From Convolutriloba macropyga (Eukaryota), in the NCBI RefSeq assembly GCF_964194025.1, contig NC_134480.1:26474001-26538000 (forward strand): 64,000 nt of DNA, given 5' to 3'. The notes under the pieces are model-generated. The model had not been told where the DNA came from and made no database searches. It saw nothing but the letters and a program-made list of their open reading frames with translations. Of this stretch, positions 382 to 16,324 are shown one piece after another (position 1 is the first letter of the stretch; each line of letters starts with the position of its first letter). The position numbers were made by a program, and so were the translations under genes.

Positions 382-1069
382 GCTTCTTGGGCAATTCTTA
401 GCAAACGCATTAATCACTTTCAAAAATGCACGTTCTGCTGAAACGTGAATCGAAGCTTTCTAGTCGAGGGTCGTCATCAGAAGTGATAATTCTATTTGCG
501 AGTTTCACCTTGCAGAGTCTGAAGACAGGGCTCTACTTCGACATCATCGCAGAGCTCATTGAGCAGGTTGGCAAAAGACTCACGGAGGTCATTGCGCCTG
601 ATCTGTATAGCCATCTTTTCTACAATGAAGAGCACACGCTACATTAAAAATTTCTCCACATACCATGTTGACGACATTGTTACGCGATCCCATCCACATC
701 TAAGGGCAATTCTATTTCTAAAGTCTCCCTTGGTTTAAAAAATTTTTTGAGTGGAAGTGCATTTACCCAGCATGATACCCCTTTCTGAATAGCCAAACCT
801 AGAGAATAGGCCTTTCTTTCGTAGATGAGACGGATGAACCTTTTTTCGCTTGATGGCCACGTTTTCGATCTAGCCTTTTCCTGCTTTTCTTTTCTGATTT
901 TCCGAAGCATTTCTTTCCTGATGAAGCTCTGCATCTAGAGCGTTATCATTCTTTAACCGCTCACATATCAGATCAGATCTTTCATATTCGTTTGCCCTCT
1001 TTTTTTTAAATTCCCTCAGCAGGCTGTCAGAAATTGAAGAAGTCCTAGCATTGAAAATCAATTATTGTT
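382..1069 (-). mobile_element. CRE-clade non-LTR retrotransposon, 3' part (RT thumb, CCHC knuckle, restriction-like endonuclease), decayed
   Basis: Minus-strand translation across frameshifts gives LIFNARTSS, QKGVSCWVNALPLKK, VCGEIFNVACALHCRKDGY..RRNDLRESFANLLNELCDDVEVEPCLQTLQGE, DDDPRL..DSRFSRT..KVINAFAKNCPRS. These match CRE motifs EKGASxWLxALPL / CxC..H..C..GG..RHN / DARLD..FFDVKVFNP. Confidence 0.85.
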
Positions 1070-1405
1070 AAGAAGTGTCAAAAGTTGATACAAAATTGTT
1101 AAATTACTCGAACATTCTCGCAATAACTTGCGTCGCCAGGAGTTTAAAAAAAATTAAGTAAATTTTCACAGATGTGCAAGTATACAGCAACGCGTCTTGA
1201 TTATCTAATTAAATTTTTGAATTTTTCTATAATTTTTACAGGTTTCAAACTTAAAGTTTGTTAAAAAGTTTGAAAAAACTTTAAATCTTTAAAAATGAGT
1301 CTTTTTCTCTATGAGTTTTGAATAAGAGAATTTTGTTGCTCGCATGTTATGTGGCAATTCAAATTTTCTCTTTTAGGCAGAACCTGCATTCTGCACTTAA
1401 TATTT
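1070..1405 (-). repeat. 3' pseudo-LTR of PLE1
   Basis: Diverged direct repeat of 8982-9329; includes the last codons of the ORF (KY*). Confidence 0.85.
1099..1147 (-). ncRNA. Degenerate minimal type I hammerhead ribozyme in the 3' pseudo-LTR
   Basis: Minus strand reads actc-CTGGCGA-cgcaagttattgc-GAGA-atgt-TC-gagt. Stem I (actc/gagt) and stem II (gcaa/ttgc) are intact; the core boxes are mutated from CUGANGA and GAAA. Confidence 0.6.
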
Positions 1406-1749
1406 CATTGTTAGTTCACTACTTTTGTACTCGTCCCGCGTATTTTGTTTTGTCTTGTGTCTACTAATGTGTAGAGTTTCTTTGGTCATAAGTTTTTCGC
1501 TATCCTGGCACTGTTGAGTTACCTTATAATGAAAGGCCCTTAAAGGCCCATAGCATTAAACTACATGAACGGCGAATTGGTTTTTTGATGCTCCGAAAAT
1601 CTCGTGGCCAAATGTCGACACAATTGTCCGACATAGGTGGAATTGCATCCACAACAACTTATTTCGTAGTCCCCATGAGACTTCAGATTGCCATCAAAAC
1701 TAGATTTCAGGGATGGTAGACAAGTACATAATTTTCGCGTTGTTAAATA
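1397..1749 (-). pseudogene. GIY-YIG endonuclease region of PLE1
   Basis: TTRKLCTCLPSLKSSFDGNLKSHGDYEISCCGCNSTYVGQLCRHLATRFSEHQK...KETLHISRHKTKQNTRDEYKSSELTMKY*. Confidence 0.9.
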
Positions 1750-1808
1750 GTTTACTTTCAGATAAAATCATGTAAGAGGCAGCCGTGGTGGCCCCCCAAC
1801 TTCTGTGA

Positions 1809-2387
1809 ATGGTTGTTATTGTTGCTGCCTCCTCTCTATAAACAGCTTAAGCAAAGTGTAAGAACATCAGACGACAATAACAGCCATGAGTCAAATCAAC
1901 CCCAGGTGTCAGCTTGAACCCTAGAGCCGACCCCGAAAAAAGAGTTGTCAACTTTCTGAAATCTTGAGTCCACAAAGACGAGAGTATTATCATCTGGCAC
2001 GACGTTATAAACAACTCGATTACACATCATCCCCGTATTAGACGTGCCCCGCTCTCCAGGGAATAACTCATCTTCAAATTACTGAAGATCCTCAAACTCT
2101 CTGGAATTGTTTACGTGCAAAGAAACGGTGCAACTGATATTTACCAGTACCTAGCGACTAAATCTGGTTTCCCTGTCGTTCACCTTTCGAGAGATCTCTT
2201 GTCAAAAAGGAAACCAAGAGATACTACAATAGCAGCTCGATGACAAGCTCTCTATATTTGCCCATCACTATAGTTGAAATTCCTGGTTCTTGTTAAGAGG
2301 GTCAAAGACGATTTTCTTGCATTCAAGAGAAAAAAGAAACGACCATCCTCAGCCCAGCGAAGACGCTTTGCAAGATATGCTAACTAG
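1809..2387 (+). pseudogene. LINE upstream ORF (ORF0), divergent SGNH/esterase-like protein with basic C-terminus
   Basis: 193 codons in one frame with internal stops: MVVIVAASSL..PGVSLNP..IIIWHDVINNSITHH..IVYVQRNGATDIY..LLSKRK..KRKKKRPSSAQRRR. Homologous to the minus-strand ORF at 8284-8889. Confidence 0.7.
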
Positions 2388-2482
2388 GTAGTCTATTCTT
2401 TTCTTTCCTGCAATCAATCTTGTAATCGTGTATATCTTTCTGAACCGGTTAACTCCACGGTCAGTTGGATTTCAACGACAAG

Positions 2483-3392
2483 ATGACTCGCAACATCAAG
2501 ACCTGCAAAAAGAACATCAATCCCAGCGACAAAACTTATCACAGTGTCGCTTACGATTGTCACATACACTTGACATCAGTATGCACTAACCTGACAAAAG
2601 TTGCTGTCAACGGCTTTGCCGAAGATGAAATGAACGCTATGCTCTTTTGCAACAAATGCGTGGAGAAAAACGAACGCGAGACCTTCATACGGCGCAGAAC
2701 GAGTGGTAAATAGGACAAAAACTTGAGCAGTTCAACTTCAAGTCAAAAAAGGAACAGCTAAAGACGAGTTTGACCAAGTTAATAGAAACTAATGTTGAAG
2801 AAGCGATGAAATCCACCTCCGCAAACGTTGAAGACACCTATGCAAAAGTAGTTGCTCGGAGCATTCCCGAAAAGAATGAGACAGGCAATCCAAGAAAAGG
2901 ACAATAAATATGACGATCACAACATCAAGAAGAGTTTCCGAACCCAAGGCATCCCCGAAGATGTCGAAAAATCACGTGGTGAGAACCTTCTTCCCTTAAA
3001 TGAAAAAGTTAAATATGTTCTGAAGATTATTGGCGTCCAGCCTCAGATAGTGGAAATGATGAGACTCATTTAACAATGGAAATTTAGCAATGGACGTATG
3101 ATACCTAAAACACTTCTTGTTAACGTATTAACAGAACACGACGCCGGAATGGTCCTATTAAAAATGCTTTGAAAATCGAGACAAACACGTGGACGAAAAG
3201 GTCTATCTCACGTACGCATTAACTAAAGAAGAAGCGTTTAAATAAAGTCTCTGGCTCAAACGCAGGAGAGAGCCATTGAATGACGGTGTTCCTCGAGAGA
3301 AACTGAAGATAAGAAACTTTGCGTTATTTAACAAACACTTTTAGGTGGATCTTGAGCCGAACAACTCCGTAAGTCCTGAAACAAGCTCATGA
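2483..3392 (+). pseudogene. CR1 ORF1 (N-terminal PHD-like finger, coiled coil, RRM-like region)
   Basis: KTCKK..DCHIHLTSVCTNL..MLFCNKC; RTQGIPED; PKTLLVNV; LKIRNF; broken by stops and frameshifts. Confidence 0.8.
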
Positions 3393-6304
3393 CTACACCA
3401 CATGTATGTTTTGCAGATCATCGCACGAAGCCTGGTGAGTTACGAAAGACGCTTCCATCTATCAAATGCCATCAGTTTATGCCAGCCTGCCGTGATTTGT
3501 ATCTGTGAAACATGGCTCAATAACAAAAAAAGCGATCCTGAGCTACTCTGAATGACTACTTGATCTTTCGCTCAGATAGAAAATCCACTGAAGACAAGAA
3601 TCCACATGGCGGCAATCTCATTGCTACCCAAAGTGCCCTCAACTGTCGTCGATTGGCACTGGATGACGTCGACAGTTGTGCTATCTGCGAAATTCAAGTA
3701 ATCAAGAACAAAATATTTTGCTGTTCCTTCTACAACCCCCCGAAGACCAGCCCCTATCGATACTCAATCGAAGACTTTGAGAAAATTTTATCTTGCATCC
3801 CAAAAGACTGCATAGCCTTCGTCTGTGGAGACTTGAACTTCCTCAAAACGAATTGGACGAACTGGACCAGTACTCACCCGGAAGAAAATTCAGTAATTGA
3901 ATTCTTCAAAAACAGAATCTTCCGTCAACCGATTGTTTTCCCAACCTTTAGCAGAAACGTTCTTGATGTCGTTTTCCACCAAAAAGGCAACGTGTTTTCA
4001 ACAAATGCAGATGCTTTTTCGAAAATTTTCAACTGTTCTGACAACATTGGGATTAGTAGCACAATCAAATTACCACATATAGTTCAAAATAGTAGAAGAG
4101 AATTTTATTGGAGTTTTGGTTCAGCTGATTTTGACAAAATAGCCAGTGAGATTGAGCAAACTCCTTTGTTTCACTAACATTGACAACTTCTACAAAGAAC
4201 TCGAAGAATACCAGGCGAAACTCATACGCAGGAATGTCCCATCGAGAACTAGGCACGGTTAATGTCGCCCTCCCTGGAGCAAACCAAGAACGTCGCATTT
4301 GCTACGAAAATTAGAGAGCCACCAAAAGGCTTGTTTTGAGACCTAAAAGCTATCGAAAAGCGTTTGTAGCTAAACTCCAAAACCTGGTATCTGAACTGAT
4401 CGAACATGATCGTAAAGAATATCGGAACGGTTTGCTAGGATCACGAACAACCGGACTGATCTTCAAGCATCTCAAAAGTCTGACAAAGGACTCAAACTTT
4501 TCATCTGATATGGAGTACGACGGAAGAACTGCAAATACAACCCAAAAGGCGTCTTTTTTAATTTTTTCTTCAACTCAGTGTTCTCCGCCAAAGAACCCTT
4601 AAGAATTGAAGATATTAAAGTAGAGAATCCAACGCTGACAAATTTCAGCATCTCGAAAGCCAGTATCAAGTCCATCCTACAAGAACTATATATAATGACG
4701 ACCCGAGGCCTCAATGCATCCCACCAATTTTGTACCAGCAAACGTCCGAGCAGATGAGTTCAACACTCCACAAAAACATCAAGCGACTAAAAAGAATGCT
4801 CAAGAAGTAGAAAGTAGCAGCAGTTAGTCCCATCTACAAAAAAGGCATTAGGAAACTGATGAACAACTATCACGGAATATCCCTCATTAACATTTACAGC
4901 AAATTCTTTGAGAAATGCATGTATGAGCCTCTCTACACTCATTTTGTGCATTTCATGAGTTATAATCAGCACGGTTTTGTGCGCAAAAGTTCGATATTAA
5001 GCAACCTGAGAAAAATACTTCAAAGAGTGCGTCAGTCACTGGAGTGCAACAAGGATGACAATGTAGTTGCTTTTTACTCCGACTTCTCAAAGGCGTACCG
5101 CACCGTCTACCGACTACTGTCTGACCGCGTACCACACCGTCTACTACTAGAGAAGTGTGCTTCAATTGGAGTCGGTGGCTGCTTCATCGAAATCCTTCAT
5201 GATGACCGCGTACCGCACCGTCTACTACTAGAGAAGTGTGATTTAATTGGAGTCGGTGGTTGCTTCATCGAAATCCTTCATGATTACCAGTTCGGATGGG
5301 AACAATTTGTTCGATTGAATAATTGTTCCTCTGCAACTCTCGAAGTTACAAGCGGTGTCCCACAGGGCTCACTGCTCGAGCCACTATTATTTTTCATTTT
5401 CATCAACGACCTACCTGACTTGTTGAAATTCAGCGAATCATTCATCTTTGCAGACAACCTAAAGCTCCTTTTCACAAGAAAAGCCGACTGGCAAATTTAA
5501 GAAGACCTGAACAGCATTCAGCACTGGTTGAAGACCAACAAAATTGGTCTGGCAATTGAAAAGTGCCCTGCACTGAGAATCCACCTCCACTCCTGAGATC
5601 TGATGTTAAGCATAAGTCAACTGCACAGCGCTGACTCCATAAAATATCTTGGTTTTTTGTAACTTAAGACATGACCTAGTCTCTACACATCTTCAAAAGA
5701 CTCAAGAAAGCCAACAGGGCTCTTTACCTGCTTCGAAGAAACGTTTCGCCAAAAGTCAATGTGTCTGTCAAACTCGGACTATTTAAGTCCAATTCTTCTG
5801 CCAATACTGCTCTATGGAATGAACTGCGTACGGTTGAGCCGTGGTTCAACCACAGACTTAGAGAGCTTTCAAAAACGTGCTTAGAACTGGGTCTGTTATG
5901 ACTCCAATCGAAGCATCCTCCAACAGCTACTTCTCCTCAACGTACTACCACTTCCGCTCTTCATGCAGTGCAACAACATTCTGCTCATGTCCAAACTACT
6001 TGTTGAAGGAGAACATAACATCAACATTCCCACTTGCAAGCCTGAATCTGATAGGTCCACGATGTTTTTCAAGCTAAACAAGTGCAAGAAAGAAAAGAAT
6101 CGTGGAGCATTTTTCAACCGCACATGCAGAGTCATTATCAGAATAAACAAAAAAATTCAGTTTGCCGACCCTGTCCGTTTAAAATCAAGATTAGTCAACC
6201 TGATGTGGAAGTTTGTCGACAACAGATTCTCTAATTCCAACCCTTGCACATGGCAACTATGTTGCGACTGCTGTGACTGTCGCAACATTTGGAAATTGTT
6301 CTAA
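3393..6304 (+). pseudogene. CR1 ORF2 (AP endonuclease + reverse transcriptase)
   Basis: ARSL, CICETWL, FRSDR..HGG, YNPP, GDLNF, SDN; NYHGISL, NQHGF, YSDFSKA, SGVPQGSLLEPLLFFIFINDL, FADNLKL, KYLG; Cys-rich C-terminus. Confidence 0.93.
5123..5284 (+). repeat. In-frame 81-bp tandem duplication in the CR1 RT
   Basis: DRVPHRLLLEKCxxIGVGGCFIEILHD is encoded twice (5123-5203, 5204-5284); a partial third start lies near 5094. Confidence 0.92.
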
Positions 6305-6363
6305 TCAGAAGTTATGGGAGAAATCCTCTGGTGTCAAACCCCAAGCCACAACAACATCAAATA

Positions 6364-8274
6364 TGGTTGTCAATTTGCACGTTTTTTCCAATTTTAGCTT
6401 CAATTGCAGTTTGATGTTACCTCGATACTACAGGAAAAAAAAGGTTTAACATCTTTCGCTGGCCTTTTTTGTCCCCTCAGTTGTAACTTCTCGCCTCCGT
6501 TTTTCAATTGACGTTTACTTTTGATTTTCTGTAAAGCATCGTTGATTGTTTTGGAAGTCCAAATTTCAGGGTATTGATTTCTTAGCTAAATACTTTCATT
6601 TTTCTTTAAAGTTTTGTCAAAATTTTGCCATGTGCTATTGCTTCTAAAAACGCAGTGAACAGACCCTTCTACAACATTCTTTTTATGTTGGATTGGTGCA
6701 CAGCTACGGAAGACAACTTCCGTATCGATTGGTTTCCTGTGCCACTCGAAATTAACTTCTTTACATCTATTTACATTGATGTTCATGTCTAAAACGGATA
6801 AATTCCAATTTTCGTCAAGTTTTTCTATTGTGAATTTTGATTTTCTATAAATGGTGATTACTTTTTTGAGAAAGGTGTCCGGTTCACCATTTACCCTGCA
6901 AATTATACCCTCTACATATCTTGAGAATAATTGTCCTTCCGTTTCCGGTTCACTATTTAATTTGTCAACCATCTGGCAATTGGAGCAGTACCACACCATT
7001 TCTTAATTTCGCGTAAAGGTGATAGTCAAAATTTTTGGCATTTTGCTTGGAACCAATTCGCACATTTCTCACATTCGACTCCTTTTCCATTATAAGTGAC
7101 TATACGGTTGAATTCAGGGCCTCAAGATCATTTTTAGGGATCTTATTAATGATCTCTTTCGTTGACTTGATCTGATGTTCAGATGCTTTAATCCAATTGT
7201 TAGCAAGAGCTATTGCAAGTGATGCCGTACAGACAGCTAGGCGAAATAAATTCTCTTGGGTTGTGCTCCTGTTGAACGCAGTTTTTGATAAATTTTTGCT
7301 TAATAAAGAGCTCTTCTTCATATCAAGCAACGTGCCGTTGATGTCTATTTCAATCTTCAGAGCAATTTTATCGCCGGCACAAGCAACTTCTTGAAATTGT
7401 GTGCTATCAAGGACATCTGCATCCGCCAGTTTTTGTGATATGATTGCTTCTTCATCACACAAAATCCCGTGTCCCTTTCAAAAGGTACAGCCACGATGTC
7501 ATTATCTTCCAAAAATTTTGCCACTTTCACAACCCCTCTGTCGGCGATTGTTTCTCTGACATTTTTAGCGTACCATTTTGCAGAGACCTCAATTTCATAC
7601 AGTTTCTTACCATCAGTTCACATTTCTCGTAGCGTGCGGACCAGTTTGTCTACATCTGCTAATAAGTCCACCTCATTGAACTTGTCGCGGAGTGGATGTT
7701 TTGGGCCGTCGGACAGAAGATCTTTTACAAATGTTGGTAAGCTAATGTCATCAAGTATTCTGATGGAATCAAAAGTTTCTTCCTTCAAGGGTCTGTCCTG
7801 ACGTACAGACAGCTTTTTTCAACTTTGCATCCAACCCTAGTTTATGTTCTAGTTTAATTTTCCGGATAGATAAGCGTATGTTGAAGGCCAGAGATCCGAG
7901 CAGTTTTTCTTTCAGAGCCGAGCCTGACACAGTTCACTCCTAATATTGTCAGCCCTTGCGTCGAGTTTCGTTTGATTTTCTCTTGCTTTGCTTAGTTCCG
8001 TTTTAAGTAGCCTAAGTTGAAAACCACGTACGGCCTGATTACGGAAAGCATCATTTTTGGGAACACGAACTTTTAAAAAACCTGGTATAACATCACTTTC
8101 AACGCATTTCTCTAGAATATAAATTTTTCCATTTCCATCTTCCCGTTTCTCTAAATTTTTCATATGTTCCAGAAAATTCTTCTGTTTCTCAGTTTTTCTG
8201 AGGACACGTTTCAACCAACTTAGTGGTAGGAGTGGCGTCATTTGCACAAGGTTCTCCTGAACTACAGACAACAA
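6364..8274 (-). pseudogene. PLE1 main ORF: N-terminal domain and RT with internal PHD finger (internally deleted, decayed)
   Basis: YILEKCVESDVIPGFLKVRVP; GPKHPLRDKFNE; LAVCTASLAIALANNWIK; VECEKCANWFQAKC..VWYCSNC; FSRYVEGII; KFTIEK..LSVLD..WHRKPIDT; YRGNI. Confidence 0.87.
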
Positions 8275-8283
8275 AGTCTGTAA

Positions 8284-8889
8284 TTAACAAGTTGGCCCCG
8301 TTAAGCTTCGCCTCTCTCTTGCCTGACGTTGACGTTTTCCCAACATAGGTTTACCTATTCTCTTCTTCAGTAAACTGCGTAGGTTCCTTCGGTGTCGCTA
8401 AATGATGTCCAACGTCTTCAAGTGGTGCATCCTCTTGTTAAAATTCGCTGTACTGCTTCAAACACCAATAATTACGCTGTTTTCGTCGGGAATTAATGTG
8501 CTTGGTTAATTGGATTAAACACCTGATTTCAACAAACTTTTTACAAAATAAAGGGCTCCCTTAGGTATATAATACACAATAGCTTCAAAACTGAACCTGT
8601 CTTGCTGCAGGTACTCCACGAGGCCGTCTGGGTCACAATGACTGAAGTTATTGGATCTATGTTTTGTAGTTGTGTTGATAATAGTATTGTGCCACAGTAC
8701 TAGATCCATCCGGTATCTAAGGCTTCTGCTATTTTCTATTACAAATGTGACGTTTTTCAGGATGTTTCTTGAGTTTGGGTTCAGACTCAGGCCCGAAATT
8801 GTTCTGATGTGGGGCGACAGTCCTCTCCTGCTTTCGTCAGTCATATTGTTCAATGCGTGAGAACAAGATGATGCCACTATTATGTGCAT
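8284..8889 (-). pseudogene. PLE1 upstream ORF, divergent SGNH/esterase-like, homologous to CR1 ORF0
   Basis: MHIIVASSCSHAL..SGLSLNPN..LVLWHNTIINTTTKH..IVYYIPKGA..KSGV; after a frameshift, INSRRKQ..HLKTL..LLKKRIGKPMLGKRQRQARERR. Confidence 0.72.
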
Positions 8890-8981
8890 GGTGGCTCTAA
8901 AAACCTGTTATTCTGAAATAACATCTTTAATATAACCCTTCTGATAGGTAATCGTTTCACTATCGACCTGTCTGTACAGCT

Positions 8982-9329
8982 AAAAAGTTTTAAAAGTCAA
9001 AGTAAAATTGTTAAATTACTTGAACGTTTTCGCAGAAAAAACTTGAATCTTCAGTAGTTTAAAACTTGATGAGTAAATATTTACAGATATGCACATATAC
9101 AGCAAGTTGTCTTGATTATCTATAAACCTTTTCGAATTTTTCTTGAATCTTTACAGGTTACACCCCTAAAGTTTGCTAAAATGTTAAAAAAAACTTTAAA
9201 ACCTTTAGTAAGAGTCCTTGTTTGCATGAGTTTTGAACAGAAGATTTTCGTTTTGATCCACAATATCACGTTGCTCGCATGGCAATTTGAAAAATTTTTT
9301 AGGCAGAACATGCATTTCTACTTAATATT
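8982..9329 (-). repeat. 5' pseudo-LTR of PLE1
   Basis: Direct repeat of 1070-1405; begins on the minus strand with the ORF's terminal codons. Confidence 0.85.
9011..9062 (-). ncRNA. Degenerate minimal type I hammerhead ribozyme in the 5' pseudo-LTR
   Basis: Minus strand reads acta-CTGAAGA-ttcaagttttttctgc-GAAA-acgt-TC-aagt. Core boxes are intact; stems are partly mutated. Confidence 0.65.
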
Positions 9330-10579
9330 TCAATTTTTGTTGCAGTCAATTTGTAAACGATTTGTAAACCTTCTGAGGGACACCTTGCCGTGTTTGGCGA
9401 GTTTCCTAAATATGTAAAAGTATTTGATTTTTCAAAAAAATTTTGCAGCTTATATCAGAGCCAGTAACTGAGCACAGATCACGATTACCTAACAATGACA
9501 TCTAGCCCCCCCCCAAAAAAATTGTTCGCCTTCTGAACAAACTCTGGTTTTGTAACAGATTGACATTTGATTACAATATAGCAAAATGCACCGCAAAGTT
9601 GATTGGGATTCGTAGTGATTCAGGGCTACCGGCCGCATTAACGTCATCTGCGTAACATTCATAAGTCAAACTTTGATCTTCAATCATTTCTATGGGAGCA
9701 AGTATAGCAACTCCGTGCATTGCCATGGCTATTATATCATCCTGAGTTGTTCCTTTCTTGAATTTGACTATTCTTTTATCAATGAAAAAGTCTGATGTGG
9801 TCTTATAAGAGTTTCCGATTGTTGTATCAATTGAGGTACATAGATTTTCGATATCTTTTCTAGCCAGTTTTCTGTTCAGTATTTTAAACGCGTTCCTGAA
9901 CCCATTTCTCGATTTCTTTCTATTTTTCTTAAACGCTTCTGAAGTGCCTTTGCCTCAACGAACAGGTATCAATTTTGCATTTGATCCACATATCGAGCCT
10001 TCTAGACAAGGTTTTTGTTATTGATGCATAGTTTTCAGTTGGGAATCTTGCTAGAAGTAGATGCGGCCTGATCTTTGCGCAAATCATAGCGCATTTAGGC
10101 TCAAGTCCGTCTTCGAGCGTCTTAGTGAGTGTGATGTTCATGAAATTAGCAGTTTTGAAACCTTTTTGTTGCTAATGGCAAAGATGACTGGTTTCTAATG
10201 AACTATTTCATTGCAGATTTTCCCTAGATTTTCTATTTTTTTCTTGCAAATTTTTGCAAAAGTTTTGAGGAGCAAAAGTTTTGGTTTCATGGTTCTGGGG
10301 AGCCTCGAGTTAGATTGTCGGTCTATTTTTAGGTGTTTTTGAGGGTGAATTTCAGCACTTTCACTGTTCACTGCAATGTTTGCAACAAGATTTATATGGT
10401 GTTCGTCTTTAGTTGACCGGCCACTGCATTTGAACTGACTGCAATCGTAGCACCAAACTCCACTTCCTTGCAGGTGAATGGAACAATTAGAGCAATGGTT
10501 TTTAGTGTCGGATATTGTCCGAGGGAGGCTGTTCCCCAAGCATAGAACTCCGAGAAAGATAAATAAAACTATGCATGTA

Positions 10580-11469: not shown

Positions 11470-12925
11470 CTCTATTTAATAATTTTATATAAGCAATAAG
11501 GCTTTAAAAAATTTTAAAAAAGAAAAAAGATGTTAAGAAGGAACTTTCTTCATCAATTTTGTACAAAATTAGAAAGGAGGCACCATTCCGAATTGATTGG
11601 CAGGAGACCTAAAGACAAGTTGGCGAAGCTGTCTGAGACAGCACATGCCTTTGAGGAATGGCTCTCATAATAATGTTGTTACATTTGACGGTTTTGGACT
11701 GCCAAAACTTGACCTTGTATAAAAACAAGCAGGAAAATGTATGCATCTGTTCTTTTTATGGTGAAAAGCGTACAACAGAGGACACACAGGAGTTAAAATT
11801 CTTCGAAGAATATGTGGATGACAGACTGTGCACTGTTAAGGGGAATCCTCTGGAGTACCTTGAGTGTGCGAATTCTCTTCACAAAAAAGTACAAATTACT
11901 CTTGAGACACCCAACTGCATGAGAACCCTTGCGCTCCTAGAATTGAACATAAATGTAAACCATGACAGAAAAACGGCTGTCGTAGGTTTCAAAAAACTAC
12001 TGATAACGGCATAATCTTATTTTTCCGTAGCTATGCACAGTTACAGCATAAGAAATATAAATCAAAGGACTGTACATAAAATTTTCAATGCAGCCAGTCG
12101 TTAGCAATCTTTTTATGTTGCTATTAATAAAATCAGGATTTTTGGACTAAAAACCAGTATTGTTGAAGTCACCTTGATAAAAAAATTGTTACGAAAAAAG
12201 GTCGCATCAAAACCCTCCGAGAAATAACATCATCCCAATAAATTTAATTGTCTCCACAAAAATGGACGTGAAACCGACAATTTTTGTTCAATAAGGAGGA
12301 AAAATCACTCAAAATTTTGCAGTGGACTTAAAAAGTTTTGTGGTTTTTTAAATATTTTCTTCTAAAAGAATATTAAGAAATTGCTTGCCCACCCTGAAAC
12401 TCTATTCCGACAGAAAACTGAAAACGAATCTTGTAACAAATGTTACATGTAATGGATTCAATTACGTCTATGTTGGCCAAAGCAGTCAAGATGTTACCAC
12501 TAGAACTTTGGAATATCACAAAAAAGATTCCCCTGTGGGACAAAACTTTGTTGAATTCTGTGGTACAGTGCATAATATTGTACGGGACACTGTCGAGGCA
12601 TGTCGCGTGGTTGAAAAACTAACGACAAATGAAGTGATCTACATCAAAAGGTTCAAAATGCGGGCCACAAAAACCGGGGGTGGGAAATAAAGTTGAAATA
12701 TTAGCTCAAAAGGACAAAAGTTTGACTTTTCAATTTCTTTCTGAAATTTCAAAGTATCTCTTCCGAAATTTCAAAGTATCTTGAAAATTTTTTTAGTACC
12801 TTAACTTGTTTTGCAGAATTTGCCAGAACTGGCCAATGAAAAGCAGGTAATCATATTTATTCAATTTTTTAAACAGTTTTATGTAAACCTGATAATGAAG
12901 ACAGTGTTCGATAACGTTCACTTTT
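11470..12925 (+). mobile_element. Penelope-like element PLE2, internally deleted and decayed
   Basis: KDKLAKLS..NVVTFDGFGLP; YKNKQENVCICSFY (PHD tail); FFEEYVDD; QITLETP..LALLE; CLPTLK..VTCNGFNYVYVGQSSQDVTTR..DSPVGQ; LKY*. Possible hammerhead remnant CTGATAA..GATAACGTTC at about 12889-12919. Confidence 0.82.
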
Positions 12926-13516: not shown

Positions 13517-13553
13517 AACAAATGTTTTTGAAGTTAACGTTCATCGTCAGGTT
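13517..13553 (-). ncRNA. Degenerate hammerhead motif in the PLE3 3' region
   Basis: Minus strand reads aac-CTGACGA-tgaacgttaacttc-AAAA-acat-TT-gtt, with stems aac/gtt and gaa/ttc. Confidence 0.45.
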
Positions 13554-15244
13554 AAAACTGTTTCTCAAACTGTAAAAAGATAAGATGAATTGTATCTCAT
13601 TTGTCTGAGGCAACAATTTTGACATTTCTTGGAAAAATTTGAAAAATTGTTATCGAACAACTTTTATTTATACAGAATATTTAGCTCATCCACAACTTCA
13701 ATTTTACATCTGCAATATTTTTGATTGTGCTATATAAAAATTGCTGATTTTTGCCAAGTTTCAGTTCATCTGGGTTAATTCAGAGTTTTTCCTAACCCCA
13801 AATATAACTTGTACGGGATTTCTGCTTCGTCATGCACAAAACATGTTTCTCCTTATAATTCAGTCAAAATTGTTAATTGAACATCGATTTTAGCTTGGGT
13901 TTAGGTGAACGATATCAATCAAATTGTTCTTGTGCTGGCTCCATCTCGATGATTTATGAGTTTTTGAGGGCCATGAGTATTTCTGCTGCGCGACAGCTCT
14001 CAAAAGTTCAACGCTGCTTGTGAATCATTAACATTTAGCTTAGAGTTGACCCAAGAGCGAATCGTTCTTATGATGTTCTTATGTCCTAGGGTTAACTTGC
14101 TGGCGTCTCTGTCCCAAACTTTGCCTTTTCGTTCATATACCACGTGAGATTTCAGACTTTTATGGAAAAATGTGATCAGGGTGCAGAGACAGGACTTTAA
14201 TTTTACCGTCGTGAATAAAATTTGCAACTATGAAGATTTATCATTAGCTTGCAAATGTTTGTGTAAGGTTGCACCTGAATTGTCGAAAAGTTTTTGGTAT
14301 TTCGAGAGATCTAATCTGGTTTCTTAGGTGGTTTTTTGGCTGTGTTTTCAAATGATCTTTACTGCTACCTATTATGTGATCTAAAGAATAGGACAGAATT
14401 TTTGAAGAGCATTCAACCGGATGTTTTTTGGTCCAAAATGTTATGTTCTTTTCGATCGTCTGACGGTGCTCATCTTAATTGTGATATCAAGAAAAGCCAT
14501 GTTTCGTTCTTTGTTCACTTTTTCTTAGATACAATACAGGTTTTTTTGTACCAAGTTTGCAAATTTTAAGTTTCCATCGGTTTTTTCTCAATACAAAAAA
14601 TGCAAAAAATGTCATCCAAATTTGCACTTTGAGCAATTTCTGTAGCCTCTCCAACCAACACATCATTTCATTATACCTTTTGGACAAAGTTTCTCCTCAA
14701 ATTACTCCCCGTGTTCTTGATCGCTGCAGTACGTAAGGATACAAAAAACATCATGCATTTTGGCATATGCTTTTTTTGTTTTATTTTTTGCCATTTCGCT
14801 TGAAATCAGTTTTTGCATAACACACATTCTATTCAGACAGGCGGAATGTCAGTCTTCTTTTGAAAATCCCGTTTTGATCATACTTACGGAAAATTTTGCT
14901 GATCTCTGGTTTTTGCGGTGATGCCTCGAACATTTTCACCACACGTTTGCTAATTTATCAACCAGTGATGCACCCATAGCGCGTTTGGATCATAACAGAT
15001 TGTGCATACCAGATGCCTATATAATTCAAATGAGAATTTGTCAACACTAGTCTGAAGAGATTTTGTATTTCATAATTTGAAATCCAGGGTGCTTGGGTAG
15101 AGTTTTCTTTGAGCATTTTTGGATAACGTCTCCAGCCAGCACATTTTTATATTAATTTTTTTTCAAAAGGTACTATTTGTCCGTCATCATCAAGAAAAGC
15201 TAACTCTAACGTTTTTCTAGCATCTTGTGCGATGGTTCCAAATT

Positions 15245-16324
15245 ACTAGCTTAATAGTTTTTGCAGTTTCACTCTTAATAGCTCTACGAAAATTATTGCC
15301 GTATACATTGAACAGCAGTGGTCCCGACAAAGTTGTTTGTTGCACACATGTGACAACTTCAATCCAATTGGAGTAGTATGATTTAATTTTACACGCTGAA
15401 GTCTGTCAGAAATAAGGATGTCTGGTTTTTTGTATCTATGAAAACCAATTACTCTCACTTTGTCTACTAGGATAGGATCTTTCCAGTATGTACCCTCCGA
15501 GTACTTTATGCACCTCCCAGTTATAGAGCACGTGCTTTTACATAGCTACATAGTACATCATTATGTTAAAATGGGGCACGTGTGTCTCTGGGCTGAAATA
15601 ACAAGCATGCTCTAAAAGTTTTTTAATGTTATGTTTTCGTTAAGATTGTAAGTAGGTGTGATACAATTACTGTTCGGCCATCTGTTATAGCGTAAGGCAG
15701 CAACAATAAAAAAGTCCTAATGGCTTGTTGGAAATCAACTCCATAAGTACAATATGCACCAGTCTTTTTTCTAACAAACTATAAATGGAACGGTTTCTCA
15801 GCTAACTTTCCAGCTCTTTTCCGTAAAATTTAATTTAATTAGACAATGTTAAATTAGCAAATTCCTTTATTCCATTTTCATTTATTATTATATCTTTTTT
15901 TGCAGCGCAGTTGAAGTTGTGCAACAGTCTTGTCGCCCTCTGAGTGTATTTTGAAAATTTCAGTGATTTTTCTCTCTTTCAAAAGCACTGTTTTTTACCG
16001 TTTTTAAGTTCGATAGAACTTGCCGTTTTGTGTTATAAACTTCCCGATTAGTAGAGGCCTAGTTTTCCTGTTAAGTCCTATGTGCATCTTGTTTTCTTTA
16101 TAATTTTGTTATCTAAACTTCGTCAGTCTATTTAGTTTTCTTGATGGTTTTGTGTTTACTATTTCATATATTTTGTTTACAATTGGAGCACGAGTTTTGA
16201 GATCCTTGCTAACATTTGATATCAATAAATTTAGAATTTGGAGAACATCACTGTATTGTTAGATATAGCGCCCCAGGGAACAGAACATAGTTTTAACAAA
16301 ATCGTTTGCTTTTTAACCAAACAG

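Follow-up and report, generated by a model that had tools for sequence, protein, structure and literature searches.

Does a Penelope-like element (PLE) of Convolutriloba macropyga carry a PHD finger inside the core of its reverse transcriptase (RT), between motifs B' and C, and what might a finger do there? The question was raised by the 64,000-nucleotide stretch of DNA analysed here (the window), where a dead, broken PLE copy occupies the minus strand at ~9341-6360. Its order is a pseudo-LTR (pLTR) with a hammerhead-like core, then an upstream ORF, then the RT ORF. The parts of this copy, and of the LINE nested in it, are as follows.

8980..9341, minus strand: 5' pseudo-LTR; hammerhead-like core at ~9054-9020
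8305..8892, minus strand: upstream ORF1, broken, predicted SGNH-hydrolase fold; profile match 116.9 bits; an intact homologue resembles SGNH proteins in fold (Z 10.7)
7246..8232, minus strand: broken N-terminal region of ORF2, as far as RT1; 43% identity to family B residues 4-329, E 4e-70
7226..7245, minus strand: point at which ~385 bp have been deleted, taking away RT2, motif A, the last part of RT1 and the first of B'
7187..7225, minus strand: second half of RT motif B'; tblastn match to family B residues 462-477
7122..7186, minus strand: N-terminal linker from the B' helix to the PHD finger; varies between families
6976..7121, minus strand: remains of the C4HC3 PHD finger (PLE family A); C1 is gone, C2 reads Phe and the His reads Gln, and the frame shifts at 7121/7036/7008
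6901..6975, minus strand: linker on the C-terminal side of the finger, then RT motif C, in which YVDD has become YVEG
6360..6900, minus strand: RT motifs D-E and thumb, broken; tblastn match to family B residues 538-706, blastn matches to siblings
1755..6355, plus strand: nested CR1-like LINE that splits the PLE, interrupting it at ~6360
Parts of the nested LINE, plus strand: SGNH ORF 1809-2375 (138 bits); start of Cys-rich ORF1 ~2465-2690; APE 3560-3976; RT 4763-5659
1063..1753, minus strand: displaced 3' end of the PLE (likely); GIY-YIG region 1746-1400, 3' pseudo-LTR 1416-1069

The segment at 1753-1063 resumes the coordinates of sibling copies within 10 bases of the break at 6360 at all three loci compared, and is likely the 3' end of the same PLE copy; the two pLTRs of the window are only 73% alike. 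Two more decayed PLE copies of the same PHD-bearing clade lie in the window, one at 13517-15266 (minus strand), in which traces of the PHD region remain, and one at 11560-12657 (plus strand), from which most of the RT has gone.

The peptides on which an earlier note had based its claim of a PHD finger were present on the minus strand, where the finger runs from a first Cys position at ~7121 to a final Cys codon at 6976-6978. The note was also right that the first Cys pair and the His have decayed: C1 was lost to a 4-bp deletion, C2 has become Phe, and the His has become Gln. Two details needed correction. The frame shifts three times between B' and C (at 7121, 7036 and 7008), not twice, and the peptide quoted as motif B' (LAVCTAS joined to LAIALANNW) is a chimera across the ~385-bp deletion at 7246/7225, which leaves this copy with no more of B' than its second half. 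Siblings retain the deleted bases, which encode RT2, motif A (including its catalytic Asp), the last part of RT1 and the QxDG.MG with which B' opens; motif C of the window copy reads YVEG in place of YVDD. Because the start of B' is missing here, the intact order B'-PHD-C has to be read from sister families.

The finger in the window is nevertheless not a product of chance, because the stretch 7225-6360 matches many sibling copies at 79-85% identity. The family to which it belongs, family A, gave 69 matches at 76-90% (the window copy included). Among its 38 distinct copies, the commonest residues at the eight ligand columns were C, C, C, C, H, C, C and C, with C1 kept in 36/38, C2 in 32/38 and the His in 18/38.

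The earlier note had proposed that intact copies be recovered, and a search at the protein level led to families B and C, two young sisters of family A whose frames are open. Family B has an open frame of 869 codons (13 fetched loci) and family C one of 885 codons (two loci), and the full finger is in frame at the 13 loci of the one and the two of the other. In family B, Pfam placed RVT_1, the RT of the PLE, at residues 334-482 (33.8 bits), PHD (PF00628) at 498-546 (26.8 bits against a cut-off of 24) and GIY-YIG at 774-851; the scores for the C-terminal GIY-YIG (PF01541) were 25.6 and 28.0 bits in families B and C. The RT profile ends at position 143 of 205 in family B, right at the insert, whereas in two outgroups it reaches 182-183. 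A PHD match within the RT had been anticipated, and PF00628 indeed matches at the point where RVT_1 breaks off. All 11 clade proteins scanned whole had a Pfam PHD match (six above the cut-off), as against none of four outgroups, and 45 of 45 sequence matches of the insert in the PDB were PHD-finger proteins. The finger has C4HC3 spacing with a W-x-C-x2-C end, although in some outer branches a single residue separates the last two Cys.

Copies of family B are 98-99.6% identical, dispersed and 5'-truncated, with variable 5' ends and a fixed 3' end, and the direct pLTR repeats at one locus (L061; 439 bp) are 99% alike. The full architecture is pLTR, SGNH-fold ORF1, RT with B'-PHD-C, thumb, GIY-YIG and pLTR. 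The PHD-bearing families have spread recently. The RT is likely to be active with the finger in place, since the dispersed copies are 98-99.6% identical and no PHD-less helper was found. Within the pLTR is a putative hammerhead-like core (CTGAnGA...GAAA), whose stems differ between family A and families B/C yet still pair; Rfam returned no hammerhead match in the pLTR. In this minimal core a U is added and stem III is palindromic (L061:2612-2645, L066:2594, L133:2146 and window 9054, minus strand).

How consistently the insert is kept was assessed in 92 distinct copies spanning B' and C, many of them at loci found with PHD-containing queries. The insert was present in 92/92. The span from anchor to anchor was 203-294 nt, against 30-48 expected without it; 49 of the copies were open and in frame, and 41 had the full C4HC3 set. 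A second search with two PHD-less relatives yielded no PHD-less copy, the matches listed being broken at the insert, and the finger was present in all four exceptional or unclear cases that we fetched from it. One locus (L243) considered as a PHD-less copy was rejected, having kept the PHD finger and lost motif A instead. That intact copies might lack the insert, which would have undone the earlier claim, is therefore not what we found: the open frames of 869 and 885 codons have it, as do the 92 copies. Retrocopies pass through RNA, and because all 92 keep the finger, it would appear to stay in the transposition template rather than being spliced out. When four sequence runs of unknown kind were compared with family B, a skip of the PHD alone occurred at none of the 15 joints listed (111 more were unlisted), a result that bears neither way.

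The distance from B' to C is ~100 aa in the PHD clade and 29-42 aa in 95 of the 100 relatives parsed from the best 150 among 1.84 billion representatives. Of the other five, one has 66 aa and four have a PHD finger (one of these was misparsed as short by the script). Six further fragments with parts of a PHD finger were seen among 19 inspected by eye. In an alignment of 24 database homologues, from which two partial sequences were left out, the insert was present in 17 clade members and absent in five outgroups.

In an IQ-TREE phylogeny of 48 RTs calculated with the insert excluded, the 16 PHD-bearing rows formed one side of a branch with support of 100/99. The tree was rooted on two outgroup rows; four rows with unparsed motifs were skipped, and family A, which has no open copy, is absent from it. 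The PHD clade is nested among PLEs with short linkers, so that among the 48 RTs in the tree there has been one gain of the finger, with no loss seen. The clade reaches other genomes, because three of its branches have no close copy in this one (best 49-51%). When family B was compared with families A, C and D, dN was 0.18-0.35 in the PHD core, 0.17-0.48 in the RT blocks and 0.73-1.13 in the linkers, with dS saturated or >1.3. Since dN in the PHD core resembles that in the RT and is far higher in the linkers at such values of dS, the finger is under purifying selection. The PLE lineage postulated in the earlier note, with a PHD finger between B' and C, is therefore real: the finger is in frame, is kept in 92 of 92 copies, was gained once and is, on the substitution rates, under purifying selection.

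An AlphaFold2 model gave pLDDT values of 88-90 for the B' helix and ~89 for the motif C hairpin, with 42-64 for the insert between them, and the top three Foldseek matches of the RT model were TERT. The palm is thus predicted to fold normally on either side of the insert, from which the finger would loop out. In the structural check proposed earlier, both sides of the insert were modeled with confidence, and the placement of the finger was of low confidence. The connection between B' and C probably faces away from the nucleotide site. In a sister subgroup of PLEs the B'-C loop is occupied by unrelated, variable inserts 104-219 aa long, within open RT-GIY-YIG frames (P0262/P0313, P0314, P0315, P0316 and P0212), and two or three of these inserts contain decayed remnants of C2H2-type linkers. 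They are likely to represent a second, independent capture at this loop, and they confirm that the loop is permissive. Because the same loop holds variable, decayed spacers in the sister subgroup, the site by itself would not imply a role in targeting.

The upstream ORF1 encodes 219 aa in family B and 202 aa in family C, and has 62 database homologues. Its model (pLDDT 87) aligned by VIA-align with the catalytic domain of OatA with Z 10.7 and an rmsd of 3.0 over 138 aligned residues, the top 35 rows all being SGNH-type; Foldseek agreed weakly with an SGNH fold, and Pfam and PDB sequence searches returned no match. The model identifies ORF1 as having the SGNH-hydrolase fold. A conserved Ser, Gly, Asn and late His, in blocks assigned by eye, occur at the expected places, and the Asp is absent. 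A match to DTW (from the ESM Atlas, with leads <0.9) was dropped in favor of the SGNH fold.

Downstream of ORF1 at 16 fetched loci were BEL/Pao elements (seven), LINEs (two), PLEs (six), and a PLE remnant beside a repeat array (one). The last of these adjoins a very long trinucleotide (AGT-type) array (L152:4350-9400). The LINE nested in the window also has an SGNH ORF, at 1809-2375 (plus strand). One divergent SGNH family, with AASSL for GDSL, is therefore common to PLEs, CR1-like LINEs and BEL/Pao elements, with 31-48% identity between classes; its members include window 8305-8892 (minus strand) and 1809-2375 (plus strand), L061:2813-3472, L137, L140, L142 and L146. That PLEs can have esterase ORFs, and that LTR elements share such ORFs with them, has been described before (PMC3905857, PMC5408684). 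In bdelloid rotifers (Rodriguez et al., 2017; PMC5408684), GDSL/SGNH ORFs are common to PLEs and LTR elements, with esterases in Neptune-like PLEs, whereas here a single AASSL family extends across PLE, LINE and BEL/Pao, and the PLE has no Neptune linker finger.

Against a profile built from 13 PLE fingers, four PHDs of LINE ORF1 type from this genome scored 36.5-48 bits, and 23 PHDs of host genes or LTR elements scored <=30 bits. The sample consisted of only 32 PHDs from the fetched loci, compared by profile scores without a tree, and did not contain Pygopus, the best PDB match of the PLE finger. The LINE identity of L117 was established by Pfam. Since LINE ORF1-type PHDs score highest in this limited sample, the donor was likely a LINE ORF1. 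That the SGNH ORF is common to PLE, LINE and BEL/Pao here supports the idea that the PHD finger, too, may have arrived by module traffic between retroelements in this genome. CR1-like LINEs with three ORFs (SGNH ORF, ORF1 and APE-RT) were seen at 1755-6355 (plus strand) in the window and at L140 and L141; their ORF1 opens with a degenerate, PHD-like Cys cluster, for which Pfam gave no PHD match. Separately, small, GC-rich-looking contigs (L088-L099 and L110-L115) contain numerous long open frames (up to ~2,850 codons) in which an integrase-like region is followed, near the end, by a PHD finger; these are likely LTR elements, possibly from another organism in the assembly.

Kapitonov and Jurka reportedly described, in 2003, CR1/L2-type LINEs whose ORF1 has PHD and esterase modules. 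Such LINEs have the same two accessory modules as the PLE clade, and those of this genome have both the best local match to the PLE finger and the same SGNH family. In LINEs, PHD and esterase lie upstream of the APE-RT ORF, whereas in the PLE clade the PHD finger is inside the RT of another retroelement subclass. PHD and esterase modules in CR1/L2-type ORF1 are also documented by Schneider et al. (2013; PMC3905857).

A TERT-related RT, a GIY-YIG domain, pLTRs and 5' truncation are all present, and the element is an EN+ PLE. Families B and C have two traits given for Penelope/Poseidon (PMC8557442), namely a C-terminal endonuclease (EN) with CCHH and no CX2-5CxxC linker finger; the finger of that type found between RT and EN in Neptune/Nematis is absent from both. 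The single ORF of Penelope/Poseidon is replaced by an ORF2 with the separate ORF1 upstream, and because of this ORF1 we call the clade Penelope/Poseidon-like rather than a member, a name that describes its features; the tree rows are unnamed proteins. Membership of Naiad/Chlamys was rejected, because the EN is C-terminal and the distance from A to B' equals that in outgroup PLEs; Naiad/Chlamys have an N-terminal GIY-YIG, a CxC motif and an insertion in the fingers. The Hydra clade (EN without CCHH, DKT for DKG) was rejected likewise, CCHH and DKG both being present. With Penelope/Poseidon EN+ PLEs such as the Anolis Poseidon studied in vitro (PMC11167929), the clade shares the DKG motif, RT, thumb and C-terminal GIY-YIG with CCHH, and also the lack of a linker zinc finger, pLTRs with a putative hammerhead-like core, and 5' truncation. 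In canonical Penelope/Poseidon elements there is a single ORF, and B' and C lie some 30-35 aa apart; the PHD clade adds the PHD finger between B' and C and the upstream SGNH-fold ORF.

The earlier note knew of no description of this architecture, which was correct only in part. In section 9 and File S1, Craig et al. (2021; PMC8557442) report PHD insertions from algal Chlamys PLEs only, in five families: in three of them the finger lies within the RT, between RT2a and RT3/A, and in the other two within the endonuclease. Chlamys-3_cRei, Chlamys-5_cInc and Chlamys-1_cSch therefore resemble our clade in having a PHD finger inside a PLE RT. In these elements from green algae, however, it lies between RT2a and RT3(A), with an N-terminal endonuclease without CCHH, whereas in the window's clade it lies between B' and C in the palm, with a C-terminal GIY-YIG with CCHH. 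The two gains were probably independent. What we did not find in print was the B'-C site or a PHD finger in a PLE with a C-terminal endonuclease, in a literature search whose scope was outside Repbase, Dfam and most subscription papers; the available part of Frangieh et al. (2024; PMC11167929) has no mention of PHD or chromatin. A selected B'-PHD-C architecture in a likely active PLE clade is thus apparently new at this site and in this clade.

What, then, might the finger bind? In Pygo1, W366, V350 and A356 are critical for binding of H3K4me (PMC2726290), and the counterparts in the PLE fingers are W, V and Gly/Ser/Ala in 13/13. The Pygopus PHD, an H3K4me reader, is the best PDB profile match, but its Y341 and D352 positions are mostly lost (Tyr in 3/13 and Asp in 1/13 PLE fingers), and no BCL9-like partner is known. 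A predicted complex of the PHD finger with the genome's own H3 tail gave weak support, with a score of 0.36 against 0.01 for the best control, with 94% contact agreement between runs and a partner pLDDT of 53. The pass mark was met by 51/78 solved and 2/108 mismatched pairs, but the range <=0.60, into which this score falls, contained five of the 78 solved pairs and all four passing mismatches, so that a pass there is more often wrong than right, and since PHD-H3 complexes have already been solved, the pass for H3 may merely echo those structures. Insertion sites of family B had no target motif, and in a weak test the 34 family-B flanks shifted little from the window (GC 0.372 versus 0.354, CpG o/e 0.87 versus 0.85).

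We consider the chances roughly even that the PLE finger serves as a tether between the RT-endonuclease particle and the tails of histone H3 while a new copy is being inserted. According to this proposal, the finger would have been captured once from a LINE ORF1 into the B'-C loop and would loop out of the palm, the RT working with it in place. Its ligand would be the H3 N-terminal tail, perhaps K4-methylated, and binding might raise the chance, or steer the place, of nicking and target-primed reverse transcription. A bolder version, to which we hold only tentatively, is that this telomerase-related RT has a histone reader of its own, the PHD finger looping out, binding H3 tails and steering target-primed insertion according to chromatin state, and that the B'-C loop is a repeated plug-in point for targeting modules (PHD here, and C2H2, now decayed, in the sister subgroup).

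The best-surviving rival, about as plausible as that bolder version and clearly less so than tethering itself, is that selection keeps the finger as a zinc module whose partner is something other than a histone, such as the element RNA, target DNA, the SGNH ORF1 protein or a host factor, and that it would serve particle assembly or processivity and not the choice of target. LINE ORF1 is an RNP-packaging protein, and the likely origin of the finger in such a protein fits this reading, as do the partial aromatic cage (Y341 and D352), the absence of any insertion bias seen, and the fact that purifying selection names no ligand. It sits poorly, however, with the surface residues that are conserved, which are those that form the H3K4 pocket of Pygo1. 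It is rather improbable that the finger reads histones to protect the element, by counter-silencing or opening chromatin at its own copies, and not to choose sites. Craig et al. suggest a possible role in chromatin restructuring for PHD fingers of transposable elements (PMC8557442), and the insertions look dispersed, but the finger is fused to an RT-endonuclease that acts at the insertion site and is not a separate, abundant protein. The idea that the finger is a neutral passenger, for which the tolerance of the loop in the sister subgroup for unrelated, decayed inserts could be cited, is largely refuted and very improbable: dN in the PHD core equals that in the RT while the adjacent linkers are two to six times higher, the ligands are kept across families only 43-58% identical, and no loss was seen in 92 copies or 16 tree rows. 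Finally, although the copy in the window has many breaks and a LINE nested in it, a PHD finger that is in frame in intact ORFs and kept by 92/92 retrocopies refutes a nested fragment, an intron or a misread broken copy, apart from possible alternative splicing of mRNA, and leaves that explanation almost no probability.

A young, intact family with a reader-type domain in its polymerase makes chromatin-guided insertion open to a test with point mutants. The B'-C loop can hold a folded 50-aa domain, or spacers of 200 aa, in RTs that apparently work, a tolerance that bears on RT evolution and on the fusing of domains to RTs. Within this one genome, the elements described here are also a clear example of modules passing between retroelements of three classes.
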